Shown here: positions 5,470-54,317 of the stretch, in pieces | Layout: every line of letters begins with the position of its first letter | How positions within the stretch are numbered: the first letter of the stretch is position 1 | Virus record (IMG/VR): IMGVR_UViG_3300020411_003736 | Coordinates: 32,001 to 96,000 of that record | Direction: 5' to 3' (one strand) | From: a virus | Length of the DNA: 64,000 bases | Translations under genes and position numbers: made by a program | Notes under the pieces: generated by a model | Told to the model about the DNA's origin: nothing | Seen by the model: the letters and a program-made list of their open reading frames with translations, nothing else | Database searches by the model: none

Positions 5470-5503
5470 TAAAAAGCCAGATTATTTTTAATCTGGCTTT
5501 TTT
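5470..5503 (+). terminator. Intrinsic terminator (could act in both directions)
   Basis: AAAAAGCCAGATT-loop-AATCTGGCTTTTTT. Confidence 0.75.
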
Positions 5504-5533
5504 ATATATTTTATTCTCTATATTTATGTATGT

Positions 5534-5797
5534 ATGGAAGAGTATTCTCAGTTTATACCAAAGGGTTCTGGCTCTAATATTAAGTTTGTGGTAAACATAG
5601 TAGGATTATTAGGTGCTATGGCTGGTGGATGGTATAAGTTAGAGAGTAGAGTATCTGATTTGGAAAGACAATTAGAGCAACAAGAAAAAGTTAAATCCAT
5701 ACAGCGTGAAATAGAATTGATGGAGAGAGACCAACAGTTAGAAGAATTAAAGTGGCAGTTTAAATTAGATTCATTAAAAATGGCTAACAATGATTAA
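5534..5797 (+). CDS. Single-TM plus coiled-coil protein (possibly holin-like)
   Basis: Hydrophobic segment followed by a heptad-rich C-terminus. Confidence 0.55.
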   Translation: MEEYSQFIPKGSGSNIKFVVNIVGLLGAMAGGWYKLESRVSDLERQLEQQEKVKSIQREIELMERDQQLEELKWQFKLDSLKMANND

Positions 5798-6026
5798 GTT
5801 AAAAGATTTACTTAACGAGAGATATGTATCAAAAAGGTCTGATACGATTGAAGATGTATATCAATCTGCAGTAGACTCATTAGAAGACTTATCTGATTTA
5901 TTCAAAAAACATGCACCAGAAGAAAGATTATTATCCCGTACTTTAGAAAAACAATCTATGATGGTAAGAAGAATGATAACTAAAAGTAAATCTTATCAAG
6001 ATATTAAGGATATGACAAATGATTAA
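5790..6026 (+). CDS. Putative internal head protein with MIKLKDLLNE leader
   Basis: N-terminal motif shared with neighbours, ending in L-x-E. Confidence 0.55.
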   Translation: MIKLKDLLNERYVSKRSDTIEDVYQSAVDSLEDLSDLFKKHAPEERLLSRTLEKQSMMVRRMITKSKSYQDIKDMTND

Positions 6027-6204
6027 ATTAAAATGGATTCTTGCAATAATTCTTTTATGTGGCGCCTTAGAACCTATTGAAGCTAATGTTAAAGAAGGTA
6101 AGGAACAAATAAAAGAAAAGAAACCAAAGAAACATACGCCAGGATGCAATTGTGGTGAACCACCAAAACCACCAAAGTTTTGGTTTTGGTTCAATTGGAA
6201 ATAA
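6019..6204 (+). CDS. Small secreted protein (MIKLK leader, Pro/Trp-rich tail)
   Basis: MIKLKWILAIILLCGA signal-like segment. Confidence 0.55.
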   Translation: MIKLKWILAIILLCGALEPIEANVKEGKEQIKEKKPKKHTPGCNCGEPPKPPKFWFWFNWK

Positions 6205-6205
6205 A

Positions 6206-6472
6206 ATGATTAAGTTAAAAGATTTACTAATAACATTCTTTCTGTTATCAACATTGAATGGGCAAGAGATACTAAAGGATGGTGTTAAACCAACATCATT
6301 TACTTATGAAGAAGCGGTAGAGATGTTAAAGGCTCGTGACGCTGAGTGGGAAGCTAAAGTTAAGAAGTTGGAAGAGAGAGTATATGTAGATTCTCTTATC
6401 ATAGTTGCAAAGAACGCTCACATTGAATCCCAAAAGAAACAGATAAAGGTATTGGAGTTACTTACAAAATGA
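6206..6472 (+). CDS. Secreted coiled-coil protein with MIKLKDLL leader
   Basis: Start moved to the in-frame ATG at 6206, matching the repeated leader. Confidence 0.6.
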   Translation: MIKLKDLLITFFLLSTLNGQEILKDGVKPTSFTYEEAVEMLKARDAEWEAKVKKLEERVYVDSLIIVAKNAHIESQKKQIKVLELLTK

Positions 6473-7158
6473 TTAAGTTAAAAGATTTATTAAACGAAGG
6501 AAAGTACACAGTTTATTTTGATGTTGGTTCACCTGGCTTAATGTCTAAAACTGTTAGTGCAAGAAATGAAAAGGAAGCTGCTAAACAAGTTGCTAGTGGA
6601 TTAAAGGGTGGCGCAAAACTTATTAAAAAAGTGGTAAAGGAAGGAACTGGTCTTACATATAAAAAAGGTAAGACAGTAAAGGTTAAACATAAAACATCTG
6701 GAAAAAGTATTGTTATTATAGATAAACCAAATGTAAGAAGAGAATATGAAAAAATAGGATTTTTTGCTGAAGGAAGTTGTGGGTATGGAATAGATGGAAA
6801 GGTTGGTAAAAAGCCAGCAGGTCCTCATTTGTTAAAAAAGAAGAAAAAAATATTAAAATCAAGAGTACATGAAGCACCAGGTAAATCTGGCAAAGATGAA
6901 TATGTTGGTACTGCTAGAGTTAAAGTAGAGCCTGGTACATATAAAGGTCAAAGAGTTAATTTTCACGATGTATCAATGTATCGTGACCATAAAAAACCAT
7001 ATCATTATTATTTGACAATTAGACTTGCTCACTCTGATGGTAAGAAAGTTGATATGGTGATAAGTACAGGCACACATATTCTAAAAAAAGCTGGTAAGTG
7101 GGCACAAGGATTTATTAAGAGAAGAGTTGGTGGGACTGGTAAAGAGAGATTTCAATAA
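6469..7158 (+). CDS. Basic protein with MIKLKDLLNE leader (putative internal head protein or polyprotein)
   Basis: Leader motif; internal KEG, AEG and HEA junctions; Lys-rich. Confidence 0.6.
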   Translation: MIKLKDLLNEGKYTVYFDVGSPGLMSKTVSARNEKEAAKQVASGLKGGAKLIKKVVKEGTGLTYKKGKTVKVKHKTSGKSIVIIDKPNVRREYEKIGFFAEGSCGYGIDGKVGKKPAGPHLLKKKKKILKSRVHEAPGKSGKDEYVGTARVKVEPGTYKGQRVNFHDVSMYRDHKKPYHYYLTIRLAHSDGKKVDMVISTGTHILKKAGKWAQGFIKRRVGGTGKERFQ

Positions 7159-7298
7159 TGACTAAACATTTAAAAGAAACAAACATGGGTTATTTTAAAC
7201 ATTGGTGGAGAGCTATGAAGTTAAGTGGTGCACTATTTATTCATGCATTCTTACCTGATGTTTTAAGTGATTACGCAAGTAAGGAGTTACAGAAATGA
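7158..7298 (+). CDS. Small protein, DUF6356-like (46 aa, not in the ORF track)
   Basis: MTKHLKETNMGYFKHWWRAMKLSGALFIHAFLPDVLSDYASKELQK. Overlaps both neighbours (TAATG and ATGA). Confidence 0.65.
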   Translation: MTKHLKETNMGYFKHWWRAMKLSGALFIHAFLPDVLSDYASKELQK

Positions 7299-7570
7299 GT
7301 AATGTATTAACATTAACACTAAAGAAGAAATACTTTGACGCAATATTAAGTGGTGAGAAAACAATAGAGTATAGGGATATAACTGATTATTGGAGACCAC
7401 GATTGGAGAATAAAGATTATGATACTATTCTATTTAGGAATGGATATAGTCCTGATTCACCTACAATGACTGTAGAGTATAAAGAATTAACAATAGATAG
7501 ACAATCTAATCCAAACCGATACGCATTAGTGTTGGGAGAAGTATTAGATTCTGCAAATTTGAAGAACTGA
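7295..7570 (+). CDS. ASCH-domain protein
   Basis: LTLKKKYFDAILSGEKTIEYR...YW..RL...ILFRNGY. Confidence 0.85.
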   Translation: MSNVLTLTLKKKYFDAILSGEKTIEYRDITDYWRPRLENKDYDTILFRNGYSPDSPTMTVEYKELTIDRQSNPNRYALVLGEVLDSANLKN

Positions 7571-7599
7571 TAACCTTAAACAAAAGGAGTGAGAAGTAA

Positions 7600-7887
7600 A
7601 TGGGACTATTTGGTAATGACGCTGAGTTAGAAGCTAAGATAACTCAAATTGAACAGAATATATCTGTAATAGAAGAACGGATTACACAACTTAATGTTGA
7701 TGTAGAGAGTTCTTATTCAGATATAAAGAACGATATCCAAAGGTTAAAAACAAATACATTGGAGAGTCTTGAGATACCAGAGCCTGTAGTTACATCCACA
7801 ATAGATGAATCCAAACTAAGTGATTTGGAACAAAGGTTAGAAACAATAGAGAAGAGATTAATGATTGGTGGATGGGCACCTAAGTAG
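7600..7887 (+). CDS. Coiled-coil hypothetical protein
   Basis: AAGGAG RBS; heptad pattern. Confidence 0.6.
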   Translation: MGLFGNDAELEAKITQIEQNISVIEERITQLNVDVESSYSDIKNDIQRLKTNTLESLEIPEPVVTSTIDESKLSDLEQRLETIEKRLMIGGWAPK

Positions 7888-8056
7888 AAATATCTTTTAT
7901 CTTTTTACCACTATCTATATAATCCATAATATAACGCTCTATATCTTTAGGTCTAATATATAACCCAAACATCTTTATTGAACCCTTCTTATTGCTGAGT
8001 AGTTCTTGTTCTAAACACATTCGTTTAAATAGGTACTTAGCTAAATCATCTAACAT
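7880..8056 (-). CDS. Hypothetical protein (58 aa, not in the ORF track)
   Basis: MLDDLAKYLFKRMCLEQELLSNKKGSIKMFGLYIRPKDIERYIMDYIDSGKKIKDIST. Confidence 0.45.
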   Translation of the reverse strand: MLDDLAKYLFKRMCLEQELLSNKKGSIKMFGLYIRPKDIERYIMDYIDSGKKIKDIST

Positions 8057-8070
8057 TCTGCTAATATAAT

Positions 8071-8118
8071 CTATTTACAATCACATCCACAATCGCAACA
8101 TTCACAACACTTACACAT
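8071..8118 (-). CDS. Cys-rich micropeptide MCKCCECCDCGCDCK (metallothionein-like)
   Basis: GGAG RBS just upstream of the ATG; 8 Cys in 15 aa; ATATTTAT motif upstream. Confidence 0.5.
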   Translation of the reverse strand: MCKCCECCDCGCDCK

Positions 8119-8260
8119 AATTTTCTCCAGTTTTATTATACACATAGATAAATATAAAAAAGCTATACTGAAAAAAACCTGGCTCGGTATTCGTGTCGAT
8201 TTAGCGTGGGCCTCACACCTCTTCGATCGGTGGACAACCAAATGAAGATGTCGGTGTGGG

Positions 8261-8450
8261 GGTCGGGTGGTGTTTAGGTGTGGGGTAGTTGGTGGGTGGT
8301 AAAATCGAAACAAAATCGACAACATCGGAAATCGATTTGTAGGTCGGGTGGTGTGTTGTGTAAATGGTTGGTGGGTAGTAAAATCCCCTAAATCGGATTT
8401 GTCGGAAATAGGGCGGGTGGTGTGTTGTGTAAGTGGTTGGTGGATAGGGT
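8261..8450 (+). repeat. Three imperfect G/T-rich direct repeats (GGYCGGGTGGTGT...GTTGGTGG)
   Basis: Copies start at 8261, 8342 and 8411; strong G-skew; noncoding. Confidence 0.8.
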
Positions 8451-8595
8451 GATAGGTGTGATTGGGTTAACCATCACTTTACCATTCTTCACGCCTTCCA
8501 AAATTATTTTTGTTTATTCTTTTTTTAAGGTGTCGTTTATACCACCAAAAAAAATATATCTTTTGTATCCTATCTATTATGTAATGTATAAAATT

Positions 8596-8639
8596 AACCA
8601 TAGTAACTCCCACGCCTTATTGAGACTCAATCTCAATAA
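8596..8639. repeat. Copy 1 of a ~45 bp repeat containing the palindrome TTATTGAGACTCAATCTCAATAA
   Basis: Matches 10610-10658. Confidence 0.75.
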
Positions 8640-8817
8640 ATAATTCTAATTGGTTTGGGTTGGGTTTCATAGGTCGAAACCAATTACCATATTCATCAAT
8701 CCAATTTTCCCAACCATAAGAAGTCATTTGTATTTCTATACATTCCAACATATATGGTGTTAGATTGTCGTGTGATTCTAATGTGATTGGTAATTTACTA
8801 TGTCTTATTTTCTTCAT
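8617..8817 (-). CDS. Hypothetical protein
   Basis: ORF track; C-terminal QLELF (clamp-binding-like) motif. Confidence 0.5.
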   Translation of the reverse strand: MKKIRHSKLPITLESHDNLTPYMLECIEIQMTSYGWENWIDEYGNWFRPMKPNPNQLELFIEIESQ

Positions 8818-8955
8818 TCATTTTTCTTTACATATTAGTAATATCAGATATATCTTATATTACTCATTCGTAAAATGGAAGTGCCTCTTTTTAATAGAAT
8901 AGGTGGGGTAAGAAAAAGGAGGAAACTCACCCCACCACACGATGGGTAAATGAAC

Positions 8956-10104
8956 TTAGTCACTCACCTCATCAAATAATTCTTCATCACTTCCATCACT
9001 CACAAACTTTTGAACGATTTGTTTGACAAAGGTTCTTTCGGAATCAACACCACCACTACTATCGTATTGTGGGTAGATTGTGATATCCGCGGATTCTTCC
9101 AAAGTGAATCCATCAAATAATAGTGATACTATTTCAACAGAAGTTCGAGTTGAGATACCACTACTAATTCGTGGATTATCATTTAGTGATTCCATTCGTG
9201 TCATATGAGATATTTTACTTACATTAGAAACTAATGTCTCATCTACAGATGGAAACATATATCTGAGTAATCCGAACTCTTCTTCTTCATTTAGTAAATC
9301 CATTTCAATAGTAGTGAACCTATCCATAAGTGCCTTATCTAATTGTCGGGTCGCGGTATACTCATTACCTATGTTCGCCGTGGCGACAAATGTAACTCCA
9401 TCAGATACCTTTATTGTATCCGAACCATCTTTTTCATCCAACCTTAAATATCTTTGTCCATAATCCAAAACAGACATTAGGATATTCCACGCATCGGGAT
9501 GTGCCCGCGTCAACTCATCCAATAGTATGATTGAGTTTGGAGTTTGTATCGCCTTTACAAAAAGTGATTCCGAAAAGTAAGTTCCTTTTTTGGAATCGAA
9601 ATGTGTATTTCCAATTAGGGTACTTCGTGGATCTTGTGTACTTCCCAAATTGAAGTAGAAAGATTCCCTATCCAAAGAATTGATTAAGGATTTCGCCGCG
9701 AGTGTCTTACCACACCCCGCTTGCCCTGTCATCATAATATTCTTACCTCTAATCGCAGACCTTATGAGATATTTCCACTTCAACTCTTTCATCACCAAAT
9801 CTTTTGGTTTGAGTTTATATGAAGTTGAAATGAAGTTCATCACTTCTTCGTGTTCAGATGGTATTTCGACATCCGAAGATGGTGGTGTAGTATATGTACT
9901 TCCCATACTATCGAATTGTGACATTGGGACTTTCCACCAATATATCCTTCCACCCTTCCCAACTCTTTGTTCTAAGGCCATACCCGCGTTAAAGGCGGAT
10001 TTTCGTGTGGATGTGAGAATCTCTGAAGTCCTTTTGACTCCATTCTGATCCCACGCATTGAATCTGTTCCCACTTTTTTCAATTTTAACGATTGTTGAAT
10101 TCAT
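8956..10104 (-). CDS. MoxR/CbbQ-like AAA+ ATPase
   Basis: Walker A GQAGCGKT, Walker B ILLDE, ATANIG and LDKALMDRF. Confidence 0.9.
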   Translation of the reverse strand: MNSTIVKIEKSGNRFNAWDQNGVKRTSEILTSTRKSAFNAGMALEQRVGKGGRIYWWKVPMSQFDSMGSTYTTPPSSDVEIPSEHEEVMNFISTSYKLKPKDLVMKELKWKYLIRSAIRGKNIMMTGQAGCGKTLAAKSLINSLDRESFYFNLGSTQDPRSTLIGNTHFDSKKGTYFSESLFVKAIQTPNSIILLDELTRAHPDAWNILMSVLDYGQRYLRLDEKDGSDTIKVSDGVTFVATANIGNEYTATRQLDKALMDRFTTIEMDLLNEEEEFGLLRYMFPSVDETLVSNVSKISHMTRMESLNDNPRISSGISTRTSVEIVSLLFDGFTLEESADITIYPQYDSSGGVDSERTFVKQIVQKFVSDGSDEELFDEVSD

Positions 10105-10131
10105 CGTTTTTTCTCCTTTTTCTGATACCTA

Positions 10132-10170
10132 AATTTACTCACTAAATACTATATGAGTCAAGCTTTTTTT
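10132..10170 (-). promoter_or_regulatory. Early promoter of the AAA+ ATPase
   Basis: AAAAAAAGCTTGACT-N18-TAAATT-TAGG. Confidence 0.75.
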
Positions 10171-10189
10171 TCACTTTTTTTCAATAAAT

Positions 10190-10540
10190 CGCGAGGTGGG
10201 GAAGAGGTCTTATTGACATCGCCTTCCTCACCCACCGAAATTTTCAGAGGGAATTAGTCGTCACCATTCCCTCTATATCTTAACTCACCGAATGACTATT
10301 CCCGTCGGAATTCATTACAAAGTGTTTAAGAAGTCTTTAAAAAATCTTTGGGAGTCTTTGTCAATGAGTTCTCCCTTTTCTCATCACCTCTGAAAATTTT
10401 ATCATCACCACGAGGATTTTTATGATGATGGTTGGTACATTCTACTCCTTAGTTCGTATTTACCGGCCCAACTCGGTGAACTTCAAATAGGGTATCATTT
10501 AAGTCATCTAAGTCTCAATTCCTTTTTTTTATCTCTCTCA
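10190..10540 (-). ncRNA. Candidate structured ncRNA
   Basis: Has its own promoter (10550-10590), no ORF of note, several hairpins, complementary loops and a 13-bp long-range helix. Confidence 0.5.
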
Positions 10541-10549
10541 TTACACCCA

Positions 10550-10590
10550 AATGTACCCATAAAATGCAATATGAGTCAAGGTTTTTTTTC
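10550..10590 (-). promoter_or_regulatory. Early promoter upstream of the candidate ncRNA
   Basis: A-tracts, TTGACT, N18, TACATT. Confidence 0.7.
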
Positions 10591-10609
10591 ACTTTTTTTC
10601 ACTTTTTTT

Positions 10610-10658
10610 TACCATAAGTTATCCCCCCCACGCCTTATTGAGACTCATTATCAATAAG
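10610..10658. repeat. Copy 2 of the repeat, with palindrome TTATTGAGACTCATTATCAATAA (Fur-box-like)
   Basis: Shares CCCACGCCTTATTGAGACTCA with 8609-8629; a partial inverted copy lies at 10696-10712. Confidence 0.75.
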
Positions 10659-10975
10659 TGTAACTATAGTAATATTAAGACTTACGACACGCATTTTGTT
10701 GAGTCTCAATAACATTTGAGTAATTAATCCAAAACTCTAAGTTATGGTAAAGTGTGGAATATACATAAAGTTATCCTTAAAGTCAAGCTTTTTATATCGA
10801 TATATTGTTTTATATACCAAAAATTTTAAAGTGGCGTGCGTGTGTCCATAGTATTTTGGATTCTATAGTATATTATATTAACCCTAATTAAAATATATAT
10901 TAGGGTTTTATGAAGTGGGTAATTGTGGTTTAAAGTGGTAACTTATGGTTAAGTACCACTATTATAAGGTATATC

Positions 10976-11191
10976 TTAATCTTCTATAAAATATTTGACT
11001 AAAACGGCGAGTTTATCCTCATATTCTGCCATTTTCTCTAATTCTTTTTCGATTGTCTCCATAGTATCTGGATGTTCCGCCACACCCACACCATTTTCAA
11101 TCATTATATTGATATTAACTTTATGTTTATTAATTTGGGATTCAAAGTAATCTTTCAATCCTTCCATTATATCATCTCTAAAGTTATTCAT
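10976..11191 (-). CDS. Conserved phage hypothetical protein
   Basis: HKVNI...NGVGVAEHPD..ETIEKEL motif, typical of marine T4-like phages. Confidence 0.7.
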   Translation of the reverse strand: MNNFRDDIMEGLKDYFESQINKHKVNINIMIENGVGVAEHPDTMETIEKELEKMAEYEDKLAVLVKYFIED

Positions 11192-11364
11192 ATCCTCACC
11201 TCTCTCAATGTCTTAACATATTTCCACGCATCACCCATTGTTTTGGAAATGTACTCTTTCGCATCTTCTTCATTTAGTGCGAGAAATGTGTACCCTTCAT
11301 CGGTTCTCCACCTCTTATAGTGTGAGAATTGTTTTGATTTTTTATCTTTCTTTTGTCTCTTCAT
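11188..11364 (-). CDS. Hypothetical protein (58 aa, not in the ORF track)
   Basis: MKRQKKDKKSKQFSHYKRWRTDEGYTFLALNEEDAKEY...; ATGA overlap with the next gene. Confidence 0.5.
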   Translation of the reverse strand: MKRQKKDKKSKQFSHYKRWRTDEGYTFLALNEEDAKEYISKTMGDAWKYVKTLREVRI

Positions 11365-11387
11365 ATTATGTGTCTAACTTCCTTATT

Positions 11388-11600
11388 TTATTTGTTTTTA
11401 TTTGTGAGTGAAATTTGGGTTCGAATCCATTCATCATATATCTTATCTATCTGTTCATCATCATATCCTCTCTTCTGGAATGCATCTTCTCTACTCATAT
11501 ATGTCATAGGTACATCGGATAGATTATACTCCCTACCATATGTATCTACAAATATTCTTTCCTTTAACCATTTAGGTTTATACTCTCTGTATGTTATCAT
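11388..11600 (-). CDS. Hypothetical protein
   Basis: ORF track; tightly packed. Confidence 0.55.
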   Translation of the reverse strand: MITYREYKPKWLKERIFVDTYGREYNLSDVPMTYMSREDAFQKRGYDDEQIDKIYDEWIRTQISLTNKNK

Positions 11601-11601
11601 C

Positions 11602-11805
11602 TTAATTCATGTCCTTTTTAACTTTAGGTTCATAGTATACTTTATCATAACAATTTAAACATAATTGTCCACACCCTTCTATATATCCCAATCTGAAATC
11701 CAAATGTTCATCTATGTCAAATTGAGTTTCACAATCACATATCACGCATTTATCTTTAGGTTTTATCTCTTCTTCTATTCCAATTGTCATTAATGGTTTT
11801 CTCAT
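11602..11805 (-). CDS. Small zinc-finger-like protein
   Basis: CVIC...YIEGCGQLCLNC. Confidence 0.65.
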   Translation of the reverse strand: MRKPLMTIGIEEEIKPKDKCVICDCETQFDIDEHLDFRLGYIEGCGQLCLNCYDKVYYEPKVKKDMN

Positions 11806-12050
11806 TTTACTAAATTATATCCTTCTATTAAATCCTCTACTTCATCTGTATTAGGAAATCTCCCAACCTCTTCCTTACTAAACAACATAGATGTCGCGTT
11901 ATTTGTGTGTAGAAACTTTACATTAAATATTCCATCCGAACCTTGTATTAAATCTACTTCTACTCCGAATCTATTTACTAAACTTTCCCTTAAACTAAGG
12001 GCTTGAAATTCATACCCTCATTGAGTACAATACTCTATAGTGATTTTCAT
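11802..12050 (-). CDS. Rdx-family (SelW/SelT/SelH-like) selenoprotein with CxxU motif (UGA at 12020-12018)
   Basis: MKITIEYCTQ-U-GYEFQALSLRESLVNRFGVEVDLIQGSDGIFNVKFLHTNNATSMLFSKEEVGRFPNTDEVEDLIEGYNLVK. The in-frame TGA sits at the catalytic CxxU position; a SECIS-like hairpin follows. Confidence 0.85.
11987..12001 (-). promoter_or_regulatory. Putative bacterial-type SECIS hairpin
   Basis: CCCTTA-GTT-TAAGGG stem-loop starting about 16 nt after the UGA; apical loop begins with GU. Confidence 0.55.
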
Positions 12051-12148
12051 CTATTTATCCATTTATACATTCTAAGAATCTTTTTAATATTCTTTTTATC
12101 TTATTCCTTTCACCTCTATTTCTTTCCCATAATAGAAATAACTCTTCT

Positions 12149-12334
12149 CTAAGTTTTGCCTCCGCTGACTCGCTCATTACTCTCTAATTCCTTTAACTCT
12201 TTTTCCAAACCTTCAATCATCCAACCATCCAAATGTCCTTTGGCTGTCAATTGTTGTTTGATGTGTTCTATTCTTTCCTTTCTCTTTAACTCTAAGGACA
12301 TCCCCTCTATCCAATTAGAAACTTGCTTCATCAA
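12149..12334 (-). CDS. Hypothetical protein
   Basis: ORF track. Confidence 0.5.
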   Translation of the reverse strand: MMKQVSNWIEGMSLELKRKERIEHIKQQLTAKGHLDGWMIEGLEKELKELESNERVSGGKT

Positions 12335-12570
12335 CCTCTTAACTCATAGTCTGAATATAAATCATCTTCCAATTCATCTTTCTTCTTACCTAATCTCCTA
12401 ATGATGTCCGACTCTTCCTTATCGGGACTAATACTTTCGGTTTTTTGTGCTATGTCAATACAATGAACCAAAAACTTCAATTGTTTTTCACTTAACGCAA
12501 TTCCATAACTTTTCTCCACATTTGGATTCATATAATTATGAACTTCACCAATTGTAAATTTCTCTTTCAT
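12331..12570 (-). CDS. Hypothetical protein
   Basis: Start probably MKEKF at 12570 (GGAG RBS, stop/start overlap). Confidence 0.55.
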   Translation of the reverse strand: MKEKFTIGEVHNYMNPNVEKSYGIALSEKQLKFLVHCIDIAQKTESISPDKEESDIIRRLGKKKDELEDDLYSDYELRG

Positions 12571-12815
12571 TATTCTTTCTCCAAGGTTATTCCGCATCCT
12601 TCCAACAACTCATCTAATGATATACCATCATCATATTCTTTACATTTTTGCATTTCTTCTACTAAGGGTACTAAAAACTTTTCATTTATTTCGGGCCGTT
12701 CTTCTATCAATCCCATAATAACAATTAATAATTGATTCATCACATCCCCATTCACCACATACTTATTTTCTCTAGCAAATGAGTAATAATCATAAAACTC
12801 GTTGTTAAACATCAC
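12570..12815 (-). CDS. Hypothetical protein
   Basis: ORF track. Confidence 0.55.
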   Translation of the reverse strand: MMFNNEFYDYYSFARENKYVVNGDVMNQLLIVIMGLIEERPEINEKFLVPLVEEMQKCKEYDDGISLDELLEGCGITLEKE

Positions 12816-21498: not shown

Positions 21499-22854
21499 CT
21501 ACTTTACTTCTGGCACATTACAATCACGACAGATAACTTTGGTGTTCTCTACAGTGGTAGCACCACCAGCAGAATGTGCATCTATATGTCCTTTCACTGC
21601 GTCACCGAAACGAAGTGTACATCCACAATCCTCACAAACCTTATTACCTTTACCATCATCATTTTGTAACCATAAATTAAATAAATCTCTATCCGAAATA
21701 ACTCTCAATGGATCAACACCAATCACACCATCGCAACTATCTAACTCATTAAGTAAAAATTGCAATCTAATCTCTAATCCCCTTGAATCAGAACCTAATC
21801 GTGTCTTTTGGTGATAAGCTGTCTCCTCAATACCCATCTTCTTCTGCTCATCACTAACCATTGATAATCTATTGTGTGTAACAAAAAACCAATCAACAAA
21901 CTTATTCCAATGTTTGACTCTCAATGACTTATCATTTAATATATGATTTGTTATGAGAGTTAAATTTAAAATAACACCTAAGTTTATACTCTTCTTATAC
22001 TTCTTGTTTTCCAACATGGTGTATAACTTATCTAAAACTTTATCAACTTTTGTGCTGATAAAGTGATTTCTATATTCAGGTTTCAAATACATATCTTTCA
22101 AAGTTTTTGCTGAAAGACCAGATTCTTTACCTATACCCAAAACAATAGCAGTAATCTTAGCTAACAACTCATCTTGTGCCATCTTCTTAAATGTCAATGA
22201 AGTATACAATGATTTAAGAGATTTACTATCCCTCTTAAATAAATTATGTAATTCAAACTTCGTACCCTTCCACTCATTATCTAATCTAGCAGTTCCACGA
22301 ACATAAGCAGCAGGTGCGGTATTTATCGCATTTCTCTTTTCAGCTTCTGTCATAGCATTAAGGTCATTTAAATCACAAAACATCTGCATTATCTCAGCTT
22401 CATTTGAAGAATGAGTCAACACCAATCTTAATTCGGATGAGAGAAACTTCTCTGCTAAGTGTGGGTGATTATTCTTCACATCAGACCAATTCATACCACT
22501 AAGATCATAATTATCTCTTAACTCATAATCTACCACAACACATGTACCCAATTTAAATTTGTCATTAAGAAAATCCGTAATGGTTCTAAATCTCTGTTGT
22601 CCATCTATCATTTCTGTTATGGAATGTAAAGCGCTTATTCTATTTCCACCATCCATAACCATATACTGATCATCAACTCTAGCGTATAAATTAGGGATGA
22701 CACGATTACCCTCAAAAATACTACCAATGAGTTTTTGTTGCCAACCCTTCCTTTCATGTGCGATGTAATCTCGCTGATAGGCTGGGTTTAAATTTATTGT
22801 TTTTGATATCGTTTCGATATCCTTTATGTTTATCACTTTAAGTGAACTCTTCAT
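21499..22854 (-). CDS. DUF262 (GmrS/ParB-like) domain fused to a C-terminal HNH nuclease
   Basis: PAYQRDY, IDGQQR, F..LN; CEDC...GHIDAHSAGGATTVEN...CRDCN. Confidence 0.8.
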   Translation of the reverse strand: MKSSLKVINIKDIETISKTINLNPAYQRDYIAHERKGWQQKLIGSIFEGNRVIPNLYARVDDQYMVMDGGNRISALHSITEMIDGQQRFRTITDFLNDKFKLGTCVVVDYELRDNYDLSGMNWSDVKNNHPHLAEKFLSSELRLVLTHSSNEAEIMQMFCDLNDLNAMTEAEKRNAINTAPAAYVRGTARLDNEWKGTKFELHNLFKRDSKSLKSLYTSLTFKKMAQDELLAKITAIVLGIGKESGLSAKTLKDMYLKPEYRNHFISTKVDKVLDKLYTMLENKKYKKSINLGVILNLTLITNHILNDKSLRVKHWNKFVDWFFVTHNRLSMVSDEQKKMGIEETAYHQKTRLGSDSRGLEIRLQFLLNELDSCDGVIGVDPLRVISDRDLFNLWLQNDDGKGNKVCEDCGCTLRFGDAVKGHIDAHSAGGATTVENTKVICRDCNVPEVK

Positions 22855-22973: not shown

Positions 22974-23186
22974 TTAATCTAAAATCTTATCATCAATGTT
23001 TCTAAGCAAAATCCTAACCTTATTATTGTCAACATCCTCATTTTCTTGCTTAGTGATATCCCATTCAACCAATGTACCCTCTTCCCAATCCAACTCATCA
23101 TATATCGCTTTTGGTATGGTGAAAATCAATTCCTCTGTTTTGAAGATTTCATCATTTACTAATTTCTTTTCTACTTTTATTTTCAT
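22974..23186 (-). CDS. AbrB/MazE-like small DNA-binding protein
   Basis: FTIPKAIYDELDWEEGTLVEW. Confidence 0.65.
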   Translation of the reverse strand: MKIKVEKKLVNDEIFKTEELIFTIPKAIYDELDWEEGTLVEWDITKQENEDVDNNKVRILLRNIDDKILD

Positions 23187-24379
23187 CTACCTACCTCATT
23201 TAAATACTTTGCCTTTGTTTGATTCCAACTCTTACCAACAACATCAGCATAAAATAACTTCTCAGGTTTCAATCTACCCTCATCAAATAACTTACTATAT
23301 CTTCTGATAGCTTTTGGTTTCCACCAATTGTTTATATAATCCACATCATCAACATACTTCTTCTTCATAATAAGTTCATCCTCATAGATGTTACCCTTTA
23401 GAAACTCTCTACCATTCTCATATATATCTGAATAGTAAACACCTCTTTTGAAACCATGATCATAATTTGAAGCTCTTAAACCCAACTCTTTAAATATCAT
23501 ATTAATGATAATACTCTTCACTCCAGTCTTTGGACCAGCAACTCCCTCTTTTTGTGTGGTTCTTTCTAAATACTCTTCTCTCTTATTCTCTTTAATCCAA
23601 TCATGCCAAACCTCATAAAATGAATCATCTGGCTTCAATGCAATCCTACCAGCAGATTCCCCAAGAGTTTTCCAATGTGGAATTCCATTATACATTGAAT
23701 GTACACCATAAAGAGCAGTAGTGGTAATACCAACTAAAGTTTCATTATAAAGTTCTTCCCATTTATTTCTTATAACAGAACTTGTAGTCATAGCTGCAAC
23801 CAACTTACCACCTAAGAAATTAAATCCCAAAGGTTGTGTACAACATATAGTAGTAGCAATAGAAGTATGTCTCAATTTACCATCAGTTAATTTATCTTCT
23901 TTTGTCCAACCAATATGTTTATCTCTGACACCTATTGCAACTACATCAGACCCCAAACATACCACACCTAATACTTTCTCTGTGTTTCTATCTTTGATAA
24001 AGAACTTTAGATTTCTACCAGGATTAGCAGTAAACTCCATACTATGAATCAACTTCCTTACTGAAACCCAAGTATCTGTAGCTTTGGCATCCCCTTGCTC
24101 AATATATTCCACATAAGGGTTTAACTCTTCTATCTCTTTTATAGTTTGTTGTTTGTTGTTTATGTCAGTGGGTGTCCACAACATATAACCGACATTGAAA
24201 AACTTATTTGCCTTCTTTACCATTTTGTAGGCATCTTTGTTCAGTTCCTGCCACTTTTTATATAAAGTAATCTCTTCAACTGACATAGCCTTCAACATAT
24301 TCATATTATCGATAAACTTATCCCGCTCCCGATCGTAATTAAACTCATCCGGATCGTCAAAAAAATCATTGAACGCCAC
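23183..24379 (-). CDS. DUF4338 / Druantia DruA-like protein
   Basis: PGRNLKFF...LGSDV..IGVRDKHIGW...QPLGFNFLGGKL...TTTALYG...Y...W..LGES.G. Confidence 0.75.
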   Translation of the reverse strand: MAFNDFFDDPDEFNYDRERDKFIDNMNMLKAMSVEEITLYKKWQELNKDAYKMVKKANKFFNVGYMLWTPTDINNKQQTIKEIEELNPYVEYIEQGDAKATDTWVSVRKLIHSMEFTANPGRNLKFFIKDRNTEKVLGVVCLGSDVVAIGVRDKHIGWTKEDKLTDGKLRHTSIATTICCTQPLGFNFLGGKLVAAMTTSSVIRNKWEELYNETLVGITTTALYGVHSMYNGIPHWKTLGESAGRIALKPDDSFYEVWHDWIKENKREEYLERTTQKEGVAGPKTGVKSIIINMIFKELGLRASNYDHGFKRGVYYSDIYENGREFLKGNIYEDELIMKKKYVDDVDYINNWWKPKAIRRYSKLFDEGRLKPEKLFYADVVGKSWNQTKAKYLNEVGR

Positions 24380-49085: not shown

Positions 49086-50443
49086 TTCTCCATATAATAT
49101 CTTTGCCTCGGTTCCCAATTATCAAAAGCGCCATCCATAGAATCTATAAAATTTTGTCCCATAGCTTTAGCTGTCATTTGATTTTCTTCACAAAATTTCT
49201 TACCTAAACCACCAAGTCTTTTTCTCTCATCTCTACCCATATCATAAAACTCACGAAGAGCAATGGCAGCATCTTCAGGCTCACACCTATCATCCCAAAT
49301 ATATGGTGTCGGTGGTGAACCTTGTAATGAACGACTTGTCGGCCATACAGGTTTTACCCATTCTCCGTGTTCTTTATAACGGCCTTTATGATTACTACCA
49401 AGTTCAACATAATCATCTGGTGTCAATAAGTTTCCATCATCATCTCTAAATCCACATTGGTCTTGTAATCCACCTGTAACATTAACAATAATTGGTGTTC
49501 CAACTGTAAGTGCTTCAGCACTACCCAATCCGAACCCTTCATTACTCGCTAAATTAATATAAACATCCGCTGAATTAAAAACTAAATTCATATCCCCATC
49601 TTCAAAAGAATTATTATGTATATGGTGTGTGAAACAAACATCATATTCTGGCATTAAATGCTTCATCAGTCTTGGTAAATCAGTTCCATTTTCATCGCTT
49701 GGTGTACAATGAAATATCAATACACATTCTTCCCTTTGTTCAGGAGTTAACTCATCCATAAAGTATTTATAAGCCATAGCCACATCACCAGGTTGCTTTC
49801 TTCTGATGTTTCTGTTACTATAAAGAATTCTAAATTTTTTATCTGTTAACCCAAATTTATCATTAAACTCCAACAGAGAATTATCATCATCATCCACTTT
49901 TTTATATCTTCTATCTGAAATACCGTGTGGCACATAAGTAATTTGCCAATCTTCATAATGTGGTAATAGTCTTTTATTAATACCATATGTTTGTTTTGAT
50001 ATACCCATTAATAAATCACTACTAAGATAGTAATTGGTATTGTATTGTGGATCTGGCAAATCATCCCAAATATTATAATAGAATATTGGAATATCCCTAC
50101 GAATTTCTGCCTCTATATTATAAAGCCAAGTCCAAAACCTTGGATCTGTATAATGTAATATAGCATCTGGTTTTTCTCTTTCCAATATAACTCTAACTAT
50201 ATCAGGATTACCATAACCACTCGTAGGATATATTGTTAACTTAGCATCCTTAACACCTGAAATTTCAGCTATAGCTTTATCCATATTAACAACATTTCCT
50301 TCTTCAGGATGTTTTATTGCACCAGCTAATTGTACCCAATCATATTGGTGAAGTGTCTCAACAACAATATCCTTAGATACAGTAGCTATTCCACTATGCA
50401 TTCTTAAATCATCAGACATCAATAATATCTTCTTCTTAGCCAT
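49079..50443 (-). CDS. Glycosyltransferase family 4-like
   Basis: NRNIRRK and NEGFGLGSAEALTVGTPII..TGG. Confidence 0.88.
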   Translation of the reverse strand: MAKKKILLMSDDLRMHSGIATVSKDIVVETLHQYDWVQLAGAIKHPEEGNVVNMDKAIAEISGVKDAKLTIYPTSGYGNPDIVRVILEREKPDAILHYTDPRFWTWLYNIEAEIRRDIPIFYYNIWDDLPDPQYNTNYYLSSDLLMGISKQTYGINKRLLPHYEDWQITYVPHGISDRRYKKVDDDDNSLLEFNDKFGLTDKKFRILYSNRNIRRKQPGDVAMAYKYFMDELTPEQREECVLIFHCTPSDENGTDLPRLMKHLMPEYDVCFTHHIHNNSFEDGDMNLVFNSADVYINLASNEGFGLGSAEALTVGTPIIVNVTGGLQDQCGFRDDDGNLLTPDDYVELGSNHKGRYKEHGEWVKPVWPTSRSLQGSPPTPYIWDDRCEPEDAAIALREFYDMGRDERKRLGGLGKKFCEENQMTAKAMGQNFIDSMDGAFDNWEPRQRYYMEKI

Positions 50444-50591
50444 ATAACCTCACTTCAAAATTAATCTTTTAATAATTTCTTTTTTACTTTTTTGTTGTCT
50501 TTGAGTAAATGTTCTTCAATCCTCAAAAGTATATCACGAATTTCTTTTAAAATTCTATCATTCCCCGCAGTTCCCATTCCACTGGGTTTCA

Positions 50592-50792
50592 TTAGAATTG
50601 ACTCCCACTTACATACAAAGCATCATATGTTTCAAAATTTTCCTTTATAGCATTTTCTCTTAAATACATATGCATTGATCTGTTTACAAGTTTTTGTAAA
50701 TTCATAGATGAATTGACAGTTTTTGTTTTGAAATCTCTATACAGACTTTCTATAACCTTTACGGATGTAAGTTTTACCTTAGTATCTTCCAT
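50592..50792 (-). CDS. Small ribbon-helix-helix-like protein
   Basis: LTSVKV...LQKLVNRSMHMYL; AGGAG RBS. Confidence 0.55.
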   Translation of the reverse strand: MEDTKVKLTSVKVIESLYRDFKTKTVNSSMNLQKLVNRSMHMYLRENAIKENFETYDALYVSGSQF

Positions 50793-50829
50793 TTATAACT
50801 CCTATTATACATATATAAATATATATATA

Positions 50830-51246
50830 TTAATTAATAATAAGAGTTTTTTTTCCAAATTTTTTAGCATAATTTATAGTTGACATAGTACCTGGTGAAT
50901 CAACTCCTCTTGGAATAAATGCCACTACATATTCCGAATGAATAGCAATCTGTTTATTACGAGCAAAAAAGTTTTTGACACTATAAGGTTTACCATAATT
51001 TCTTTCGTGTAGTGGACAATATAAATTATGAGCTTGATGTGCTGGTGGATATTCTTCATATTGTAAACCCAGTTCAAGAGCATATTTCTTAGCGTAATAG
51101 TCAGCTCCTTGTTTACACCCACCACTAACTATTATAGTATCAGTACCTTTTTCATTCTTTAACTTAAAAATAAATTCTTTAATCTTCTTTCGGTTTTCGT
51201 ACTTACGACTACCGACAATCCCCACTTTTAAAGTATCTTGCCCCAT
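50830..51246 (-). CDS. SLOG/DprA-like (YspA/DUF2493) protein
   Basis: IVGSR...IVSGG..GAD...ARN..I...SPGT..TI.YA. Confidence 0.8.
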   Translation of the reverse strand: MGQDTLKVGIVGSRKYENRKKIKEFIFKLKNEKGTDTIIVSGGCKQGADYYAKKYALELGLQYEEYPPAHQAHNLYCPLHERNYGKPYSVKNFFARNKQIAIHSEYVVAFIPRGVDSPGTMSTINYAKKFGKKTLIIN

Positions 51247-52097
51247 TCACAATGCTCCGTATCATAAAATTCACAAAACTTACAAGCGTTGCCAGGTTTT
51301 GCTGGATAATTTCTTTTAGTATTATAATCCCCATTAGACTCAAATACCAATTCACGAAACTCATTAAATGCCTTATTAACTTTATTAAGAGTAACACTAC
51401 CATGAGCTGGTTCAAATCTTTGCATCCTACTTACTGGCCAATCAGGATCTTTTGGTATTTTTCTTTTAAGTATGAGAAATTCTACAGATATATCATCCAA
51501 TGGTACATCAAACTTATCTGCATAGAATTGTTTATAAAGAATTAATTGTGATGTTTTATAAAAATCTTTTTTCTGATAATGTGTCCAACCACGGGTAGCA
51601 GTTTTCAAATCAATTATTTTTATCCCACCATTAATCTTATTCTTTATCACCACATCAAGAAAACTTCTAAACTCCACACCATCTTGTAACTTTGTAAATA
51701 TAGGAAGTTCAATGCCAACCAACTCATAATTCTTTTTCATAAAATACTTAGCACGATGTTTTTTAAAATCTTTAAGTATCTCTACCCCATCTTCATAGAA
51801 CTCCACCAACTCACTTTGAGTGCAGACATCAACATTATGTTCTTCTCTAATTTTAGTGAATTCCTTTATCATTTCATTTTTCAACATCAACTCCAAAGGT
51901 AGCCTTTCAGCATCCTTTATAGTATTGTCATAAAACTCACTAAGATAACTCTGAACCACAGTGTGGACAGCAGAACCAAATATGGTGTAAATATTACCAC
52001 TACCTATACTAAGTTGATCTATATATCTAAGCTTCCATTTTAGATTACATTGATTATATGCACTAAATTGAGAATGTGATAAAGATTTTAAACTCAT
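51228..52097 (-). CDS. PD-(D/E)xK nuclease, Cas4/RecB-like
   Basis: LSHSQ...C, FGSAVH, E...D...IIDLKT, QL.LY and CKFCEF...C. Confidence 0.85.
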   Translation of the reverse strand: MSLKSLSHSQFSAYNQCNLKWKLRYIDQLSIGSGNIYTIFGSAVHTVVQSYLSEFYDNTIKDAERLPLELMLKNEMIKEFTKIREEHNVDVCTQSELVEFYEDGVEILKDFKKHRAKYFMKKNYELVGIELPIFTKLQDGVEFRSFLDVVIKNKINGGIKIIDLKTATRGWTHYQKKDFYKTSQLILYKQFYADKFDVPLDDISVEFLILKRKIPKDPDWPVSRMQRFEPAHGSVTLNKVNKAFNEFRELVFESNGDYNTKRNYPAKPGNACKFCEFYDTEHCEWGKIL

Positions 52098-52693
52098 ATT
52101 ATCTCATCTATTAATCCATACTCCAAACATGTTATAGCATCCCACATCAAATCATGTTTTAATATTTCATCTAATTTCTTCATAGGAAGTTTGGTGTACT
52201 TTTTATAAACATCTTTAATGGTTTTCATCATTAAATCTAAGTTCTTTTTCTCATCATCAAAATTAGCGTATGTCCCCCAAAATTGAGTTGAAACCTGATG
52301 AATCAACATATATGAATTTCTGCTCATATATCTTTTTTTACCAACAACCGACATGAATGTAGCAGCACTAGCAGAAAACCCATCAACATAAGTTTCTACT
52401 GGGACCTTACATCTCAATATTGTATCCATCGAAGAAATGCCAGCAACTACAGAACCACCGCCGGAATTTATATATAATTTAATAGGTGGTGGTTGTATAT
52501 CAAGATTTAAAGATAGTGTTAAAGCTTTTGTCTCCAATTCACTTATCTTTTTATTTAACTCACTACAGGCATTTCGATTTACACCAGAATAGAAATAAAT
52601 CTTATTATCCTGTACTGATATATGTTTTTCTGTAGCCTCAGCACCACTTTTTCTAGGTTGTGTGGTTTTCTTTTCACCCCAATGTCTTTCCAC
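52094..52693 (-). CDS. clpP: ClpP-family protease subunit
   Basis: LYINSGGGSV, ASAAT, LIHQ and GLIDEI. Confidence 0.88.
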   Translation of the reverse strand: MERHWGEKKTTQPRKSGAEATEKHISVQDNKIYFYSGVNRNACSELNKKISELETKALTLSLNLDIQPPPIKLYINSGGGSVVAGISSMDTILRCKVPVETYVDGFSASAATFMSVVGKKRYMSRNSYMLIHQVSTQFWGTYANFDDEKKNLDLMMKTIKDVYKKYTKLPMKKLDEILKHDLMWDAITCLEYGLIDEII

Positions 52694-53232
52694 TACTTTT
52701 CTCCTTCTACATATTTTTCTGCTGATTGTATCATACCATTGACTGCATCATCAACCTCTTCTAAAAATCTATCTGTCTCTGCATCATAATCGAGACCTTC
52801 TTCTTCACATTCGTCTTCCCAAAGTCTTTCTGGCGAATCATCCTCATACCATTTAAAGCCTTTTTTACTACCATATCCACCAACTAGGAAATCATCACTC
52901 TCTTCATCCGCTGTGAACTTTACCTTAACATCTTCATCCAATTCCGCCATCTTTTCTACAAACCTCTCCATAAACCCTTCTGGAAAACTCCAAGCCGAAC
53001 AGAAAGTAATATGAGTTTCATTATTATAGTCATCCATATCCTCAACTAATATCCATTTAGGACCTATCTTATCCATTGGATACTTTTCATATTTGCCAAA
53101 GATAGGTTCTACTGTACCACGAATATGTGGTTCATTCCAACCTGATAAGTCACCGTACCAGTCCCATAGTTTTTCATGAACTTCTTTTTTCTCCGAAATA
53201 ACTTCTGTTCTAGTCCATACATGATTAGCCAT
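52693..53232 (-). CDS. Hypothetical acidic protein (DUF1281/ferredoxin-like fold possible)
   Basis: MANH start; F.SAWS.P motif. Confidence 0.55.
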   Translation of the reverse strand: MANHVWTRTEVISEKKEVHEKLWDWYGDLSGWNEPHIRGTVEPIFGKYEKYPMDKIGPKWILVEDMDDYNNETHITFCSAWSFPEGFMERFVEKMAELDEDVKVKFTADEESDDFLVGGYGSKKGFKWYEDDSPERLWEDECEEEGLDYDAETDRFLEEVDDAVNGMIQSAEKYVEGEK

Positions 53233-53648
53233 TATTTACCCCACTTATTGTTCTTAACTATTGTAGCCATAATACCATAGTTTGATACATCTAAATAAGC
53301 ATCCTCTAATGGTTCATCTACAGCCGAATTTCTTTTACTCATCAACATATTTTTAAGTCTTTGTATTTTATCATTCATCCTAAACCAAAGACCTGTAAGT
53401 GATAAATGTACTTCTTCTGGTGTAATCAATTGAGTACCGACTGATATATTACCTGGACCATAATCATGTTGTTTTCTACAAAACAATTCATATTGTTCTC
53501 TTTGCAACCTTTTGAATTCTGTAGTCATTTCGGGCCATTCCTTTTCCATTTGTTCTACAACTGGATGGACCCCATTGACACTTTTTCTCTCTACATCATC
53601 AGCAGGATCTTTGACTGTAGGTTCTAATTCTCTTTCTCTAATATTCAT
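53232..53648 (-). CDS. DUF1599 (nucleotide-modification-associated) protein
   Basis: KQHDYG...RMNDKIQRL...EDAYLDVSNY.IM. Confidence 0.8.
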   Translation of the reverse strand: MNIRERELEPTVKDPADDVERKSVNGVHPVVEQMEKEWPEMTTEFKRLQREQYELFCRKQHDYGPGNISVGTQLITPEEVHLSLTGLWFRMNDKIQRLKNMLMSKRNSAVDEPLEDAYLDVSNYGIMATIVKNNKWGK

Positions 53649-53693
53649 TATAACTCTCCAAATTACATTTTAATATACAACATTTTTCATATA

Positions 53694-54317
53694 TCATACA
53701 AGCTTTTTTATTTTTCTTTTTATTTTTTTATTTAAATAATAAACATATATATTTTTTGGTGCTCTATCTTTAAAAAATATATTTTCGTCACCACTATCAT
53801 AGCGCCGTTTTATCTCCCTACTATATGGTCTGTACTTTTGATTCATAGACCTACTATGCATTTCTTTCCCATCTACCATCAAAACAGTACCTTTAGCAGT
53901 TTCACCCAAATACTCAAAGTTAGTGGCTTTATATATCACACCATCATGACCATAATGCGTATCAGCAAAAGAAACCACAACTTCCATATCTGTATATTGT
54001 TTTAACCATTTAAATGTTTGTCCTATGAAATAACTTTCTGTATTCTTAGGCGTATCATCTATACAAACTAATCTTCTAAGTTCCAAACACTTAGTTGGAT
54101 TGATTGGATTGTATTTAGCTGCAGTAGATGGCATTGATGGGTAAGCATACATCATAGCTCCAATCATTGTTGGCAATCCAAAATTACCTTCTCTGAATAA
54201 ACCAAAGTGGTATAGAGATTGAACTCCATTTACATTATGTGAATAGTGATGTTTCTCTATAAACTTAGCTATCGATTTCCTCGGTACTTCTTCAACTGTA
54301 TATTCTGTTACAGACAT
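53694..54317 (-). CDS. Mom-like (GNAT-fold) DNA modification protein
   Basis: FIEKHHYSH...LELRRLV...KNTESYFI...VSFAD...GH.GVIYKATNF.YLG. Confidence 0.8.
   Translation of the reverse strand: MSVTEYTVEEVPRKSIAKFIEKHHYSHNVNGVQSLYHFGLFREGNFGLPTMIGAMMYAYPSMPSTAAKYNPINPTKCLELRRLVCIDDTPKNTESYFIGQTFKWLKQYTDMEVVVSFADTHYGHDGVIYKATNFEYLGETAKGTVLMVDGKEMHSRSMNQKYRPYSREIKRRYDSGDENIFFKDRAPKNIYVYYLNKKIKRKIKKLV

Follow-up and report, generated by a model that had tools for sequence, protein, structure and literature searches.

An island almost devoid of AGC/GCT in a phage contig and deserts of the same word in related genomes

The AGC/GCT island and its genes

The island described here lies in a stretch of 64,000 nucleotides (the window) that covers bases 32001-96000 of the virus record IMGVR_UViG_3300020411_003736 in IMG/VR. 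The whole contig has 130,380 nt and 32.5% G+C, and nearly all of its genes are on the minus strand. Between window positions 8204 and 12000, around a gene for an AAA_5 ATPase, the trinucleotide AGC and its complement GCT are almost absent, without distinction of strand. Exact counting in 8206-12000 gives AGC at 10161 and 10786 and GCT at 9719, 10162 and 10787, that is, 5 counts at 3 sites, two of which are AAGCTT, while 63.7 counts are predicted by the rest of the contig (Poisson 2e-21). The first-pass annotation, made from the letters alone, had reported three sites and about 40 GC dinucleotides in a segment where composition predicts tens of AGC/GCT. The exact figures agree with it (42-43 GC dinucleotides are kept), and the depletion is confirmed and stronger than first reported.

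The 2130 AGC/GCT positions of the contig have a mean gap of 61 nt. Gaps of rank 1, 2, 4 and 14 (1516, 1214, 624 and 442 nt) are all contiguous in the island, and the longest gap outside it is 625 nt. The last AGC to the left is found at 8203, which places the left border at the G-rich repeats, as had been proposed. All flank contexts of AGC are purged (AGCA 0 vs 26.6 expected, TAGC 0 vs 18), and in the core 2-kb segment only 3 of 28 GC dinucleotides have a 5' A or a 3' T, compared with 65% genome-wide. Other GC-rich words noted earlier as tolerated are indeed kept, GGCC at 3 sites, CGCG at 7 and CCGG at 1; GATC is visible in the sequence by eye only. The reported avoidance of GCT as an alanine codon also holds: it is used for 0 of 23 Ala residues in island ORFs (open reading frames; GCG 14, GCA 5, GCC 4) and for 1014 of 1759 genome-wide.

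A G-rich repeat array (8206..8460, plus strand) marks the left border. It occupies a convergent intergenic zone, consists of two 39-nt copies and shorter ones, and holds three GTTGGTGG and three GGGTGGTG. Next to it are copy 1 of a 31-nt direct repeat (8609..8639, no strand assigned), with an 11-bp stem-loop (-13.8 kcal/mol, z -3.7), and a 66-aa ORF (8617..8817, minus) with no family assignment and without AGC/GCT. The AAA_5 (MoxR/CobS-like) ATPase of 382 aa (8956..10104, minus) carries one AGC/GCT, and a strong terminator-like hairpin (8880..8945, minus; -21.7 kcal/mol, z -3.2) is situated just 3' of its stop codon. A terminator scan found no canonical terminators, and no RNA families were found in 7500-12600; one tRNA-Gly is located elsewhere in the window.

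Three of the 17 A-tract/TTGAC-type promoters predicted in the contig are inside the island, all on the minus strand, and promoters of this early type are distributed over at least 28 kb. The first, P1 (10132..10161), is composed of an A-tract, TTGACT, an 18-nt spacer and TAAATT, and a retained AAGCTT abuts its -35 box. P2 (10550..10579) has CC and not GC in its -35 flank; P1 and P2 belong to a shared 77-nt repeat with 79% identity. In P3 (10758..10786) the other retained AAGCTT adjoins the -35 box. Copy 2 of the 31-nt repeat (10627..10657, no strand assigned) is 94% identical to copy 1, its stem-loop having a z of only -0.7. Two observations concern the 870-nt non-coding promoter zone: at 10185-10341, public runs X6 and X7 contain strain variants in which 52 nt are skipped or 104 nt repeated, and the segment 10494-10724 is conserved at the nucleotide level with the collinear relative G001.

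The remaining island genes, all on the minus strand, are a 71-aa ORF (10976..11191; phrog_1811, E 7.5e-23), a 58-aa basic ORF (11188..11364), a 70-aa ORF with orthologues in G001 and others (11388..11600), a 67-aa Cys-rich, zinc-ribbon-like ORF (11602..11805) and an Rdx/SelW-family ORF (11802..12050), inside which the right border of the island falls. Three small island ORFs are without a match in G001. The Rdx/SelW ORF matches PF10262 over its full length (E 5e-16) and has an in-frame TGA (12018-12020) at CxxU; a weak hairpin (z -1.2) starts at the UGA. The ORF is a candidate for a selenoprotein encoded by the phage and has weak homologues in G001 and G005.

Judged from these predicted elements, the island is a putative hyperplastic early region of the PeSL type (predicted strong host-type promoter, small gene, stem-loop). 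Features of that type present here are T4-type replication genes, repeated sigma70-like promoters with stem-loops, and cassettes around small ORFans.

Both borders are confirmed by assembled contigs (not reads) from public runs, four of which, from four studies, were compared with the window. A 3412-nt contig spans 7198-10610 with 1 difference and covers the left border, and a 4108-nt contig spans 10651-14758 with 0 differences and covers the right one. Contigs break or branch at copy 2 of the 31-nt repeat. Promoter-to-promoter joints connect 10181>10634, 10610>15863 and 8817>15908, with loose ends at 10609-10611, and further loose ends diverge at 8186 and 12083 into motif-containing sequence. 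No pile-ups of starts or ends were seen among these contigs. The depth of contigs is approximately doubled for roughly 8610-10650 in the four runs, with left limits that differ by run; in run X2, 8610-10647 (the ATPase and the 66-aa ORF, between the 31-nt repeats) has a depth of 96-101 vs 53-61 in the flanks. The excess does not match the island in extent, and we do not read it as a terminal repeat. The segment could be sequence shared among strains, or a cassette duplicated or excised between the 31-nt repeats.

Selection acts on duplex DNA

An unbiased k-mer comparison disclosed a second word depleted in the island, CAG/CTG, with 22 counts vs 78.3. As many as 21 of the 22 remaining sites are CAGA, which is spared (21 vs 29.1 expected), while CAGC (0 vs 18.6), CAGT (0 vs 17.4) and CAGG (1 vs 13.2) are lost. 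Expressed as CAGB/VCTG, the island has 1 count vs about 49 expected. The span free of this word, 8179-12163 (bounded by sites at 8178 and 12164, with a single exception at 9725), is slightly wider than the AGC/GCT island and the borders nearly coincide. GCA/TGC appears depleted too and CpG words are in excess, largely as secondary effects; Ala-Trp, for example, can only be written as GCG TGG because GCT and CCTG are barred. A mild residual depletion of CAAG (3 vs 16.8) and GCAA (1 vs 12.0) is left unexplained. The CAG-poor stretch in G001 is only about 3-fold depleted and includes CAGA, which makes it a different phenomenon.

Base composition and codon usage do not account for the loss. When the six island proteins were kept fixed and codons drawn from genome usage in 5000 resamplings, AGC/GCT reached 30.4 +- 4.3 (minimum 15) and CAGB/VCTG 16.9 +- 3.0 (minimum 7), each vs 1 observed. 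Permuting the synonymous codons of the island itself gave 14.6 +- 3.1 (minimum 6) and 10.3 (minimum 3), respectively, again vs 1; since these shuffles still exceed the observed counts, junctions between codons have been purged too. In 2000 Markov-1 simulations with the dinucleotides of the island, AGC/GCT was expected at 23.4 +- 5.4 (minimum 7) vs 5 and CAGB/VCTG at 40.4 (minimum 22) vs 1. The depletion therefore holds under the codon-shuffled control that the first-pass annotation had proposed.

The ATPase gene illustrates how the sequence was cleared. It carries one AGC/GCT and one CAGB/VCTG, while the 80 best homologues in viral contigs contain 12-40 and 11-33 and a further 80 from metagenome contigs 6-45 and 14-40, respectively, so that all 160 of 160 are unpurged (at least 6 AGC/GCT and at least 11 CAGB/VCTG each). 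The closest orthologue (L001/G001, 82% aa identity) has 24 motif sites, of which 17 are at identical residues in the codon alignment; 15 of these 17 have been removed here synonymously, as in Lys-Ala, where AAA GCT is replaced by AAG GCG. The only coding exceptions, GCT at 9719 and CAGG at 9725, are both in the Walker A codons for Thr-Gly-Gln-Ala-Gly (9716..9730, minus) and are forced, because Gln-Ala cannot be encoded without AGC or CAGG. Sites retained in the island are confined to places constrained by coding or promoter function.

The purge thus affects both strands, all reading frames and non-coding DNA, and has been made mostly by synonymous changes, often coordinated in neighbouring codons. 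Selection acts on duplex DNA against a motif of roughly 3 bp, because both orientations are lost although the island genes are all on one strand, non-coding DNA is included, and the replacements are not deamination products. Decay by cytosine deamination was rejected on the last ground, Ala GCT having become GCG, GCC or GCA, and a cause at the level of anticodons or codons because codon junctions and non-coding DNA are also purged. Primases recognise comparable words (T4 GCT/GTT, DnaG CTG); avoidance of their sites was dismissed since GTT/AAC is not purged (112 in the island vs 140 expected). None of the 11 listed island variants creates a motif, a comparison without power since only 10% of random substitutions would do so.

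Deserts in related genomes

The DNA polymerase PolB of the phage is T4-type (phrog_262, E 2e-193), 44.6% identical to that of Microcystis phage Mel-JY01 and about 35% to those of cyanomyoviruses, and a gp44-like clamp loader is present. By these proteins it is a distant T4-type phage, marine and uncultured. It was found in 20 public runs from 13 studies, and its contig is 71% complete (CheckV), without end repeats. A TonB-dependent receptor of 910 aa (60770-63502, minus), with CarboxypepD_reg and Plug domains, is absent in the collinear G001. Among the 80 best homologues of this receptor in genomes (52-73% aa), most come from metagenome-assembled genomes (MAGs) of Marinimicrobia/SAR406, and for this reason the host is probably a Marinimicrobia bacterium.

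Deserts were searched for with 32 strand-collapsed trinucleotides in ten related genomes (1.08 Mb), as segments of at least 2 kb at no more than 15% of expected counts. AGC/GCT deserts were detected in 5 of the 10, namely the present phage (G000), G002, G004, G008 and G009. Nested inside those of G004 and G008 are GCA/TGC deserts, and no further trinucleotide qualified; a single-gap test over 68 sequences agrees. G001 is collinear over its whole length and has orthologues across the island, but it has no desert, its longest gap being 689 nt. The region in Microcystis phage Mel-JY01 was uninformative.

The desert of G004 has 2 counts vs 45.6 over 2.9 kb, starts at an early-type promoter and holds four to five of them. 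The most extreme island found is in G008 (49301-56000, L181), with 24 GpC vs 115.7 expected, GGCC spared and CpG untouched. Alanine there makes up 0.9% of residues vs 4.2% nearby, and 10 of 14 Ala codons are of the form G|GCC; none of the 8 ORFs tested in this segment matched a Pfam family. In the next 10.7 kb of G008 only AGC/GCT is missing (17 vs 96.9). The longest desert is carried by an eleventh contig, G011:C3, with 58 counts in 35.2 kb; the contig ends have 11.9 per kb and this tract 1.65 per kb. An early-type promoter (position 3818) immediately precedes the desert, and the PolB gene inside it uses GCT for 2 of 30 Ala codons vs 26 of 39 in the present phage. This 44-kb contig (L207+L287+L288) was obtained from a 'Flavobacteriales' MAG; its PolB is 56% and its TonB receptor 73% identical in aa to those of the present phage, and it is a phage contig syntenic with the latter, hence probably mis-binned. 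The islands of G002 and G003 are less pronounced, at 7-8-fold depletion; they occupy AT-rich genes of sugar type and may partly reflect composition.

In the clade as a whole, the patches are sharply bounded, 1.3 to 35 kb long and differently placed, and the ten genomes differ in overall AGC density, with values between 5.8 and 16.3 per kb. The avoided words follow a hierarchy: AGC/GCT always, TGC/GCA sometimes, and all GpC except GGCC once. In G000, G004 and G008, 5 of 13 retained sites occur at promoters, either immediately upstream of the elements or inside them (in the -35 flank or in the spacer between -35 and -10). A literature search on AGC/GCT avoidance in phages yielded nothing relevant among the matches listed.

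Possible origins of the purge

Our preferred explanation is that the purge would reflect counter-selection of sites for an agent whose specificity covers about 3 bp of duplex DNA, with an A/T-flanked GpC step at the centre; most likely it would be a nuclease, of host or phage origin, that cuts frequently or nicks. Homologous recombination at the repeated cassettes of promoter and stem-loop would move segments between purged and unpurged lineages, and the 3.8-kb island would be a mosaic patch or a locally maintained patch, not a marker of a genome end. Exchange is favoured because patches vary in size and place, because their borders coincide with promoter cassettes and strain-variable junctions, and because lineages differ in overall AGC density. 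PeSL-type exchange between purged and unpurged lineages offers the best account of the purge being local, although we put it forward tentatively and would stop short of calling it probable. The graded series of contexts suggests that a single kind of agent was encountered at varying intensity. Passages on T4-type hyperplastic regions describe PeSL cassettes as mediating modular shuffling and also mini-circle formation (PMC2839356, PMC4122927), and phage HNH nickases with 3- to 7-bp sites are described in PMC3592412.

Several observations weigh against this explanation. The CAGB/VCTG purge is confined to the present genome among the relatives examined. No purged donor copy of the ATPase was found among the 160 homologues, and divergence from G001 is no greater for island genes than for their surroundings (82% identity for the ATPase, 50-83% for the flanks); in-situ purging is therefore equally possible. 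Recent acquisition from a donor with the same bias had been considered in the first-pass annotation, and relatives with far larger deserts do exist, but a donor of this patch was not found. The putative host DNA, represented by 805 kb of loci carrying the closest TonB-receptor homologues and mostly from Marinimicrobia MAGs, shows no avoidance of AGC (observed/expected 1.07), GpC or CAG, so that a host enzyme would need a matching protection of host DNA. We know of no nuclease with AGC specificity, and two AGCT sites survive, which would not be expected with an AGC cutter except under protection or constraint. Finally, early-type promoters are concentrated in deserts (12 of 147, where deserts make up 2.96% of the total length; P 1.5e-3), but three genomes drive this post hoc result, and the deserts had been predefined by AGC counts.

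Selection in place, for instance on immediate-early transcription, remains a serious rival to exchange. One specific form of it, which we consider unlikely, is that a duplex binder of GpC steps blocks host RNA polymerase on the incoming single-copy genome; the binder would be a small-molecule intercalator or alkylator (a chemical defence) or a protein roadblock, and immediate-early units would lose the sites that it binds. The motif of 2-4 bp with graded flanks, unavoided CpG and exempt GGCC resembles a ligand-affinity series: small ligands have preferences of 2-4 bp, actinomycin-type drugs bind GpC, with GGCC the worst, and neocarzinostatin and ecteinascidin favour AGC. However, the flank order here (A > T > C > G) differs from that of actinomycin. 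Deserts start just downstream of promoters, early promoters are enriched in them and 5 of 13 retained sites are at promoter elements, but in G011:C3 the 35-kb desert takes in PolB along with further genes for which immediate-early expression is not expected, the second desert of G008 covers sugar genes, most units with early-type promoters in the present phage are unpurged, and no producer or compound is known to us for these hosts. In the part of PMC13250531 that deals with intercalator defence, DNA intercalators block phages early in infection; the agent here would likewise act early on incoming phage DNA, although no sequence footprint on phage genomes is reported in that part. RNA-level avoidance of a sequence-specific endoribonuclease, such as a GCU-cutting toxin, would have a known parallel in motif-free messages that resist toxins, and convergent transcription could expose both strands as RNA. 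With both orientations purged equally while island genes are all one-stranded, and with promoter-proximal and intergenic DNA purged as well, we regard it as extremely improbable.

The first-pass annotation had interpreted the island as a first-injected or terminal segment purged against host restriction, to which the phage's own shredder of host DNA may be added as the opponent, the nuclease being active at a time when no other phage DNA has entered the cell; a 3-bp cutter is indeed more sensible as a shredder than as a restriction enzyme. Precedents are described in parts of the work on T5 first-step-transfer DNA (bioRxiv 10.1101/866236) and on the leading region of Autographiviridae (PMC12455610), and the sharp borders, the repeat array at one of them, the strong host-type promoters and genes pointing off the putative end fit such a position. 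The real, both-strand purge at the DNA level bears out one half of that interpretation, but the first-injected or terminal position is left unsupported and we judge it quite unlikely: replication genes including PolB are T4-type, early-type promoters extend over at least 28 kb, the collinear G001 has no purge, and deserts of relatives vary in place and in size up to 35 kb, so that nothing like the conserved injection module of T5 is seen across relatives. There is also no contig end or end repeat at the island, and the doubled depth, limited to roughly 8610-10650, mismatches it and fits strain-shared sequence. Pfam and PHROGs scans showed no family of the T5 pre-early genes A1, A2 or dmp among island ORFs, no targeted search having been made. 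The other proposal of the annotation, that the island is kept free of the phage's own Mom-like adenine modification with the avoided words as modification sites, is weakened and in our opinion very unlikely. A Mom-like gene is present (53694-54317; phrog_1384, E 3e-59) and both avoided words contain an AG core; the Mu Mom consensus contains C-A-G. Against this, Mom-like genes occur in the desert-free G001, G007 and G010 (the protein of G001 is 90% identical) and were not found in the available parts of four of the five desert-bearing genomes (G002, G004, G008 and G009, all fragments), and 12 of 22 retained CAG sites fit the Mu consensus, which may not be that of the present enzyme. Highly improbable, finally, is avoidance of a protospacer-adjacent motif (PAM) of CRISPR in a hot spot of spacer acquisition bounded by the Chi-like G-rich array. 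The short, strand-indifferent motif resembles a PAM, and by Chi rules the three GTTGGTGG occupy the strand on which a RecBCD-type enzyme coming from the island side would be halted. However, we know of no PAM of such a form, the coding strand has many copies of GNTGGTGG (55), and 35-kb deserts are unlike a hot spot. A comparable array in G004 is 2.3 kb from the desert and in opposite polarity relative to desert genes, so that a Chi-like array, or a zone bounded by RecBCD or CRISPR, was discarded as unsupported by that genome.

Similarities to known systems are partial. With the T5 first-step-transfer and Autographiviridae early regions, as described in the passages available for them, the island shares the local absence of a nuclease motif in an early-gene block with host-type promoters, beside a repeat-rich non-coding zone (bioRxiv 10.1101/866236, PMC12455610). 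In those passages a defined 6-bp or Type I site is avoided and the block forms a physical leading end, whereas here the motif has about 3 bp, a position at an end is hypothetical, replication genes are T4-type, and patches of relatives are elsewhere and reach 35 kb. As in T4-type PeSL regions, repeated sigma70-like promoters and stem-loops flank small ORFans and promoter-to-promoter joints occur, but the passages on those regions mention no oligonucleotide-free dialect (PMC2839356, PMC4122927). An otherwise conserved AAA+ ATPase sitting inside one unit is a further difference from them.

Classical restriction-site avoidance likewise counter-selects a short duplex word on both strands, but it is genome-wide and usually few-fold, while here depletion exceeds 10-fold in patches and amino acids are bent (Ala 0.9%). 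To our knowledge, no restriction enzyme recognises a motif this short and this non-palindromic, and the survivor is the palindrome AGCT. The chlorella-virus enzyme CviJI (RGCY) cuts GGCC, and we know of no enzyme that matches AGC with GGCC exempt. Motif avoidance is a classic footprint of DNA-targeting defence, with known cases involving sites of 4-8 bp and modest depletion. In the present case a trinucleotide is nearly fully removed over kilobases of coding DNA, at a cost in codon choice and alanine; what is new is avoidance of about 3 bp that is near-complete, patchy and recurrent in a clade, which is an abundant one of uncultured ocean phages. Such a purge would point to a selective agent of a kind undescribed in phage-host conflict. 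We find it doubtful, while worth considering, that a new agent with about 3-bp specificity for A/T-flanked GpC acts on a widespread clade of marine phages, probably those of Marinimicrobia. If so, this agent, be it a nuclease that cuts frequently or nicks or a small molecule that binds GpC and serves as chemical defence, would act with enough force to reverse codon preferences, lower the alanine content and produce AGC-free tracts of 4-35 kb, which would mark DNA that must function, or evolved, in its presence. AGC/GCT deserts could then serve as a sequence signature for mapping the reach of the agent in metagenomes, and mosaic borders at promoter cassettes as a natural record of adaptations spreading between phage genomes.

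Other genes of the window include, besides the Mom-like gene, the DUF4338/DruA-like and glycosyltransferase genes named in the first-pass annotation, all of which are present. The DruA/DUF4338-like gene (23183-24379) adjoins a gene for a DUF262 (GmrSD_N) and HNH nuclease (21499-22854, minus; PADLOC NsnA, E 6e-15). The latter is placed between genes 91-92% conserved with G001 and is absent at the syntenic place there; it was not found in G002-G005, which are fragments, and no link to deserts is demonstrable. In the 71% genome fragment there is no match to the DNA methyltransferase families PF00145, PF01555 and PF02086, to PF00303 (thymidylate synthase) or to PF01702 (TGT). A sugar-nucleotide cluster (33372-55545), partly different in G001, encodes a NeuB-like synthase, a cytidylyltransferase, a GDP-mannose dehydratase, epimerases, an aminotransferase, an FkbM methyltransferase and several glycosyltransferases.

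To the left of the island, a 2.4-kb block of plus-strand ORFs (5497-7911) is inverted relative to G001. In contigs of 3 of the 4 public runs, a junction connects 7285 to 6469. The 817-nt unit delimited in this way (6469-7285), with a 229-aa ORF of no known family, would be present as a tandem copy or a circle, and several alternative joints were observed at 6467-6469 in the public-run contigs.

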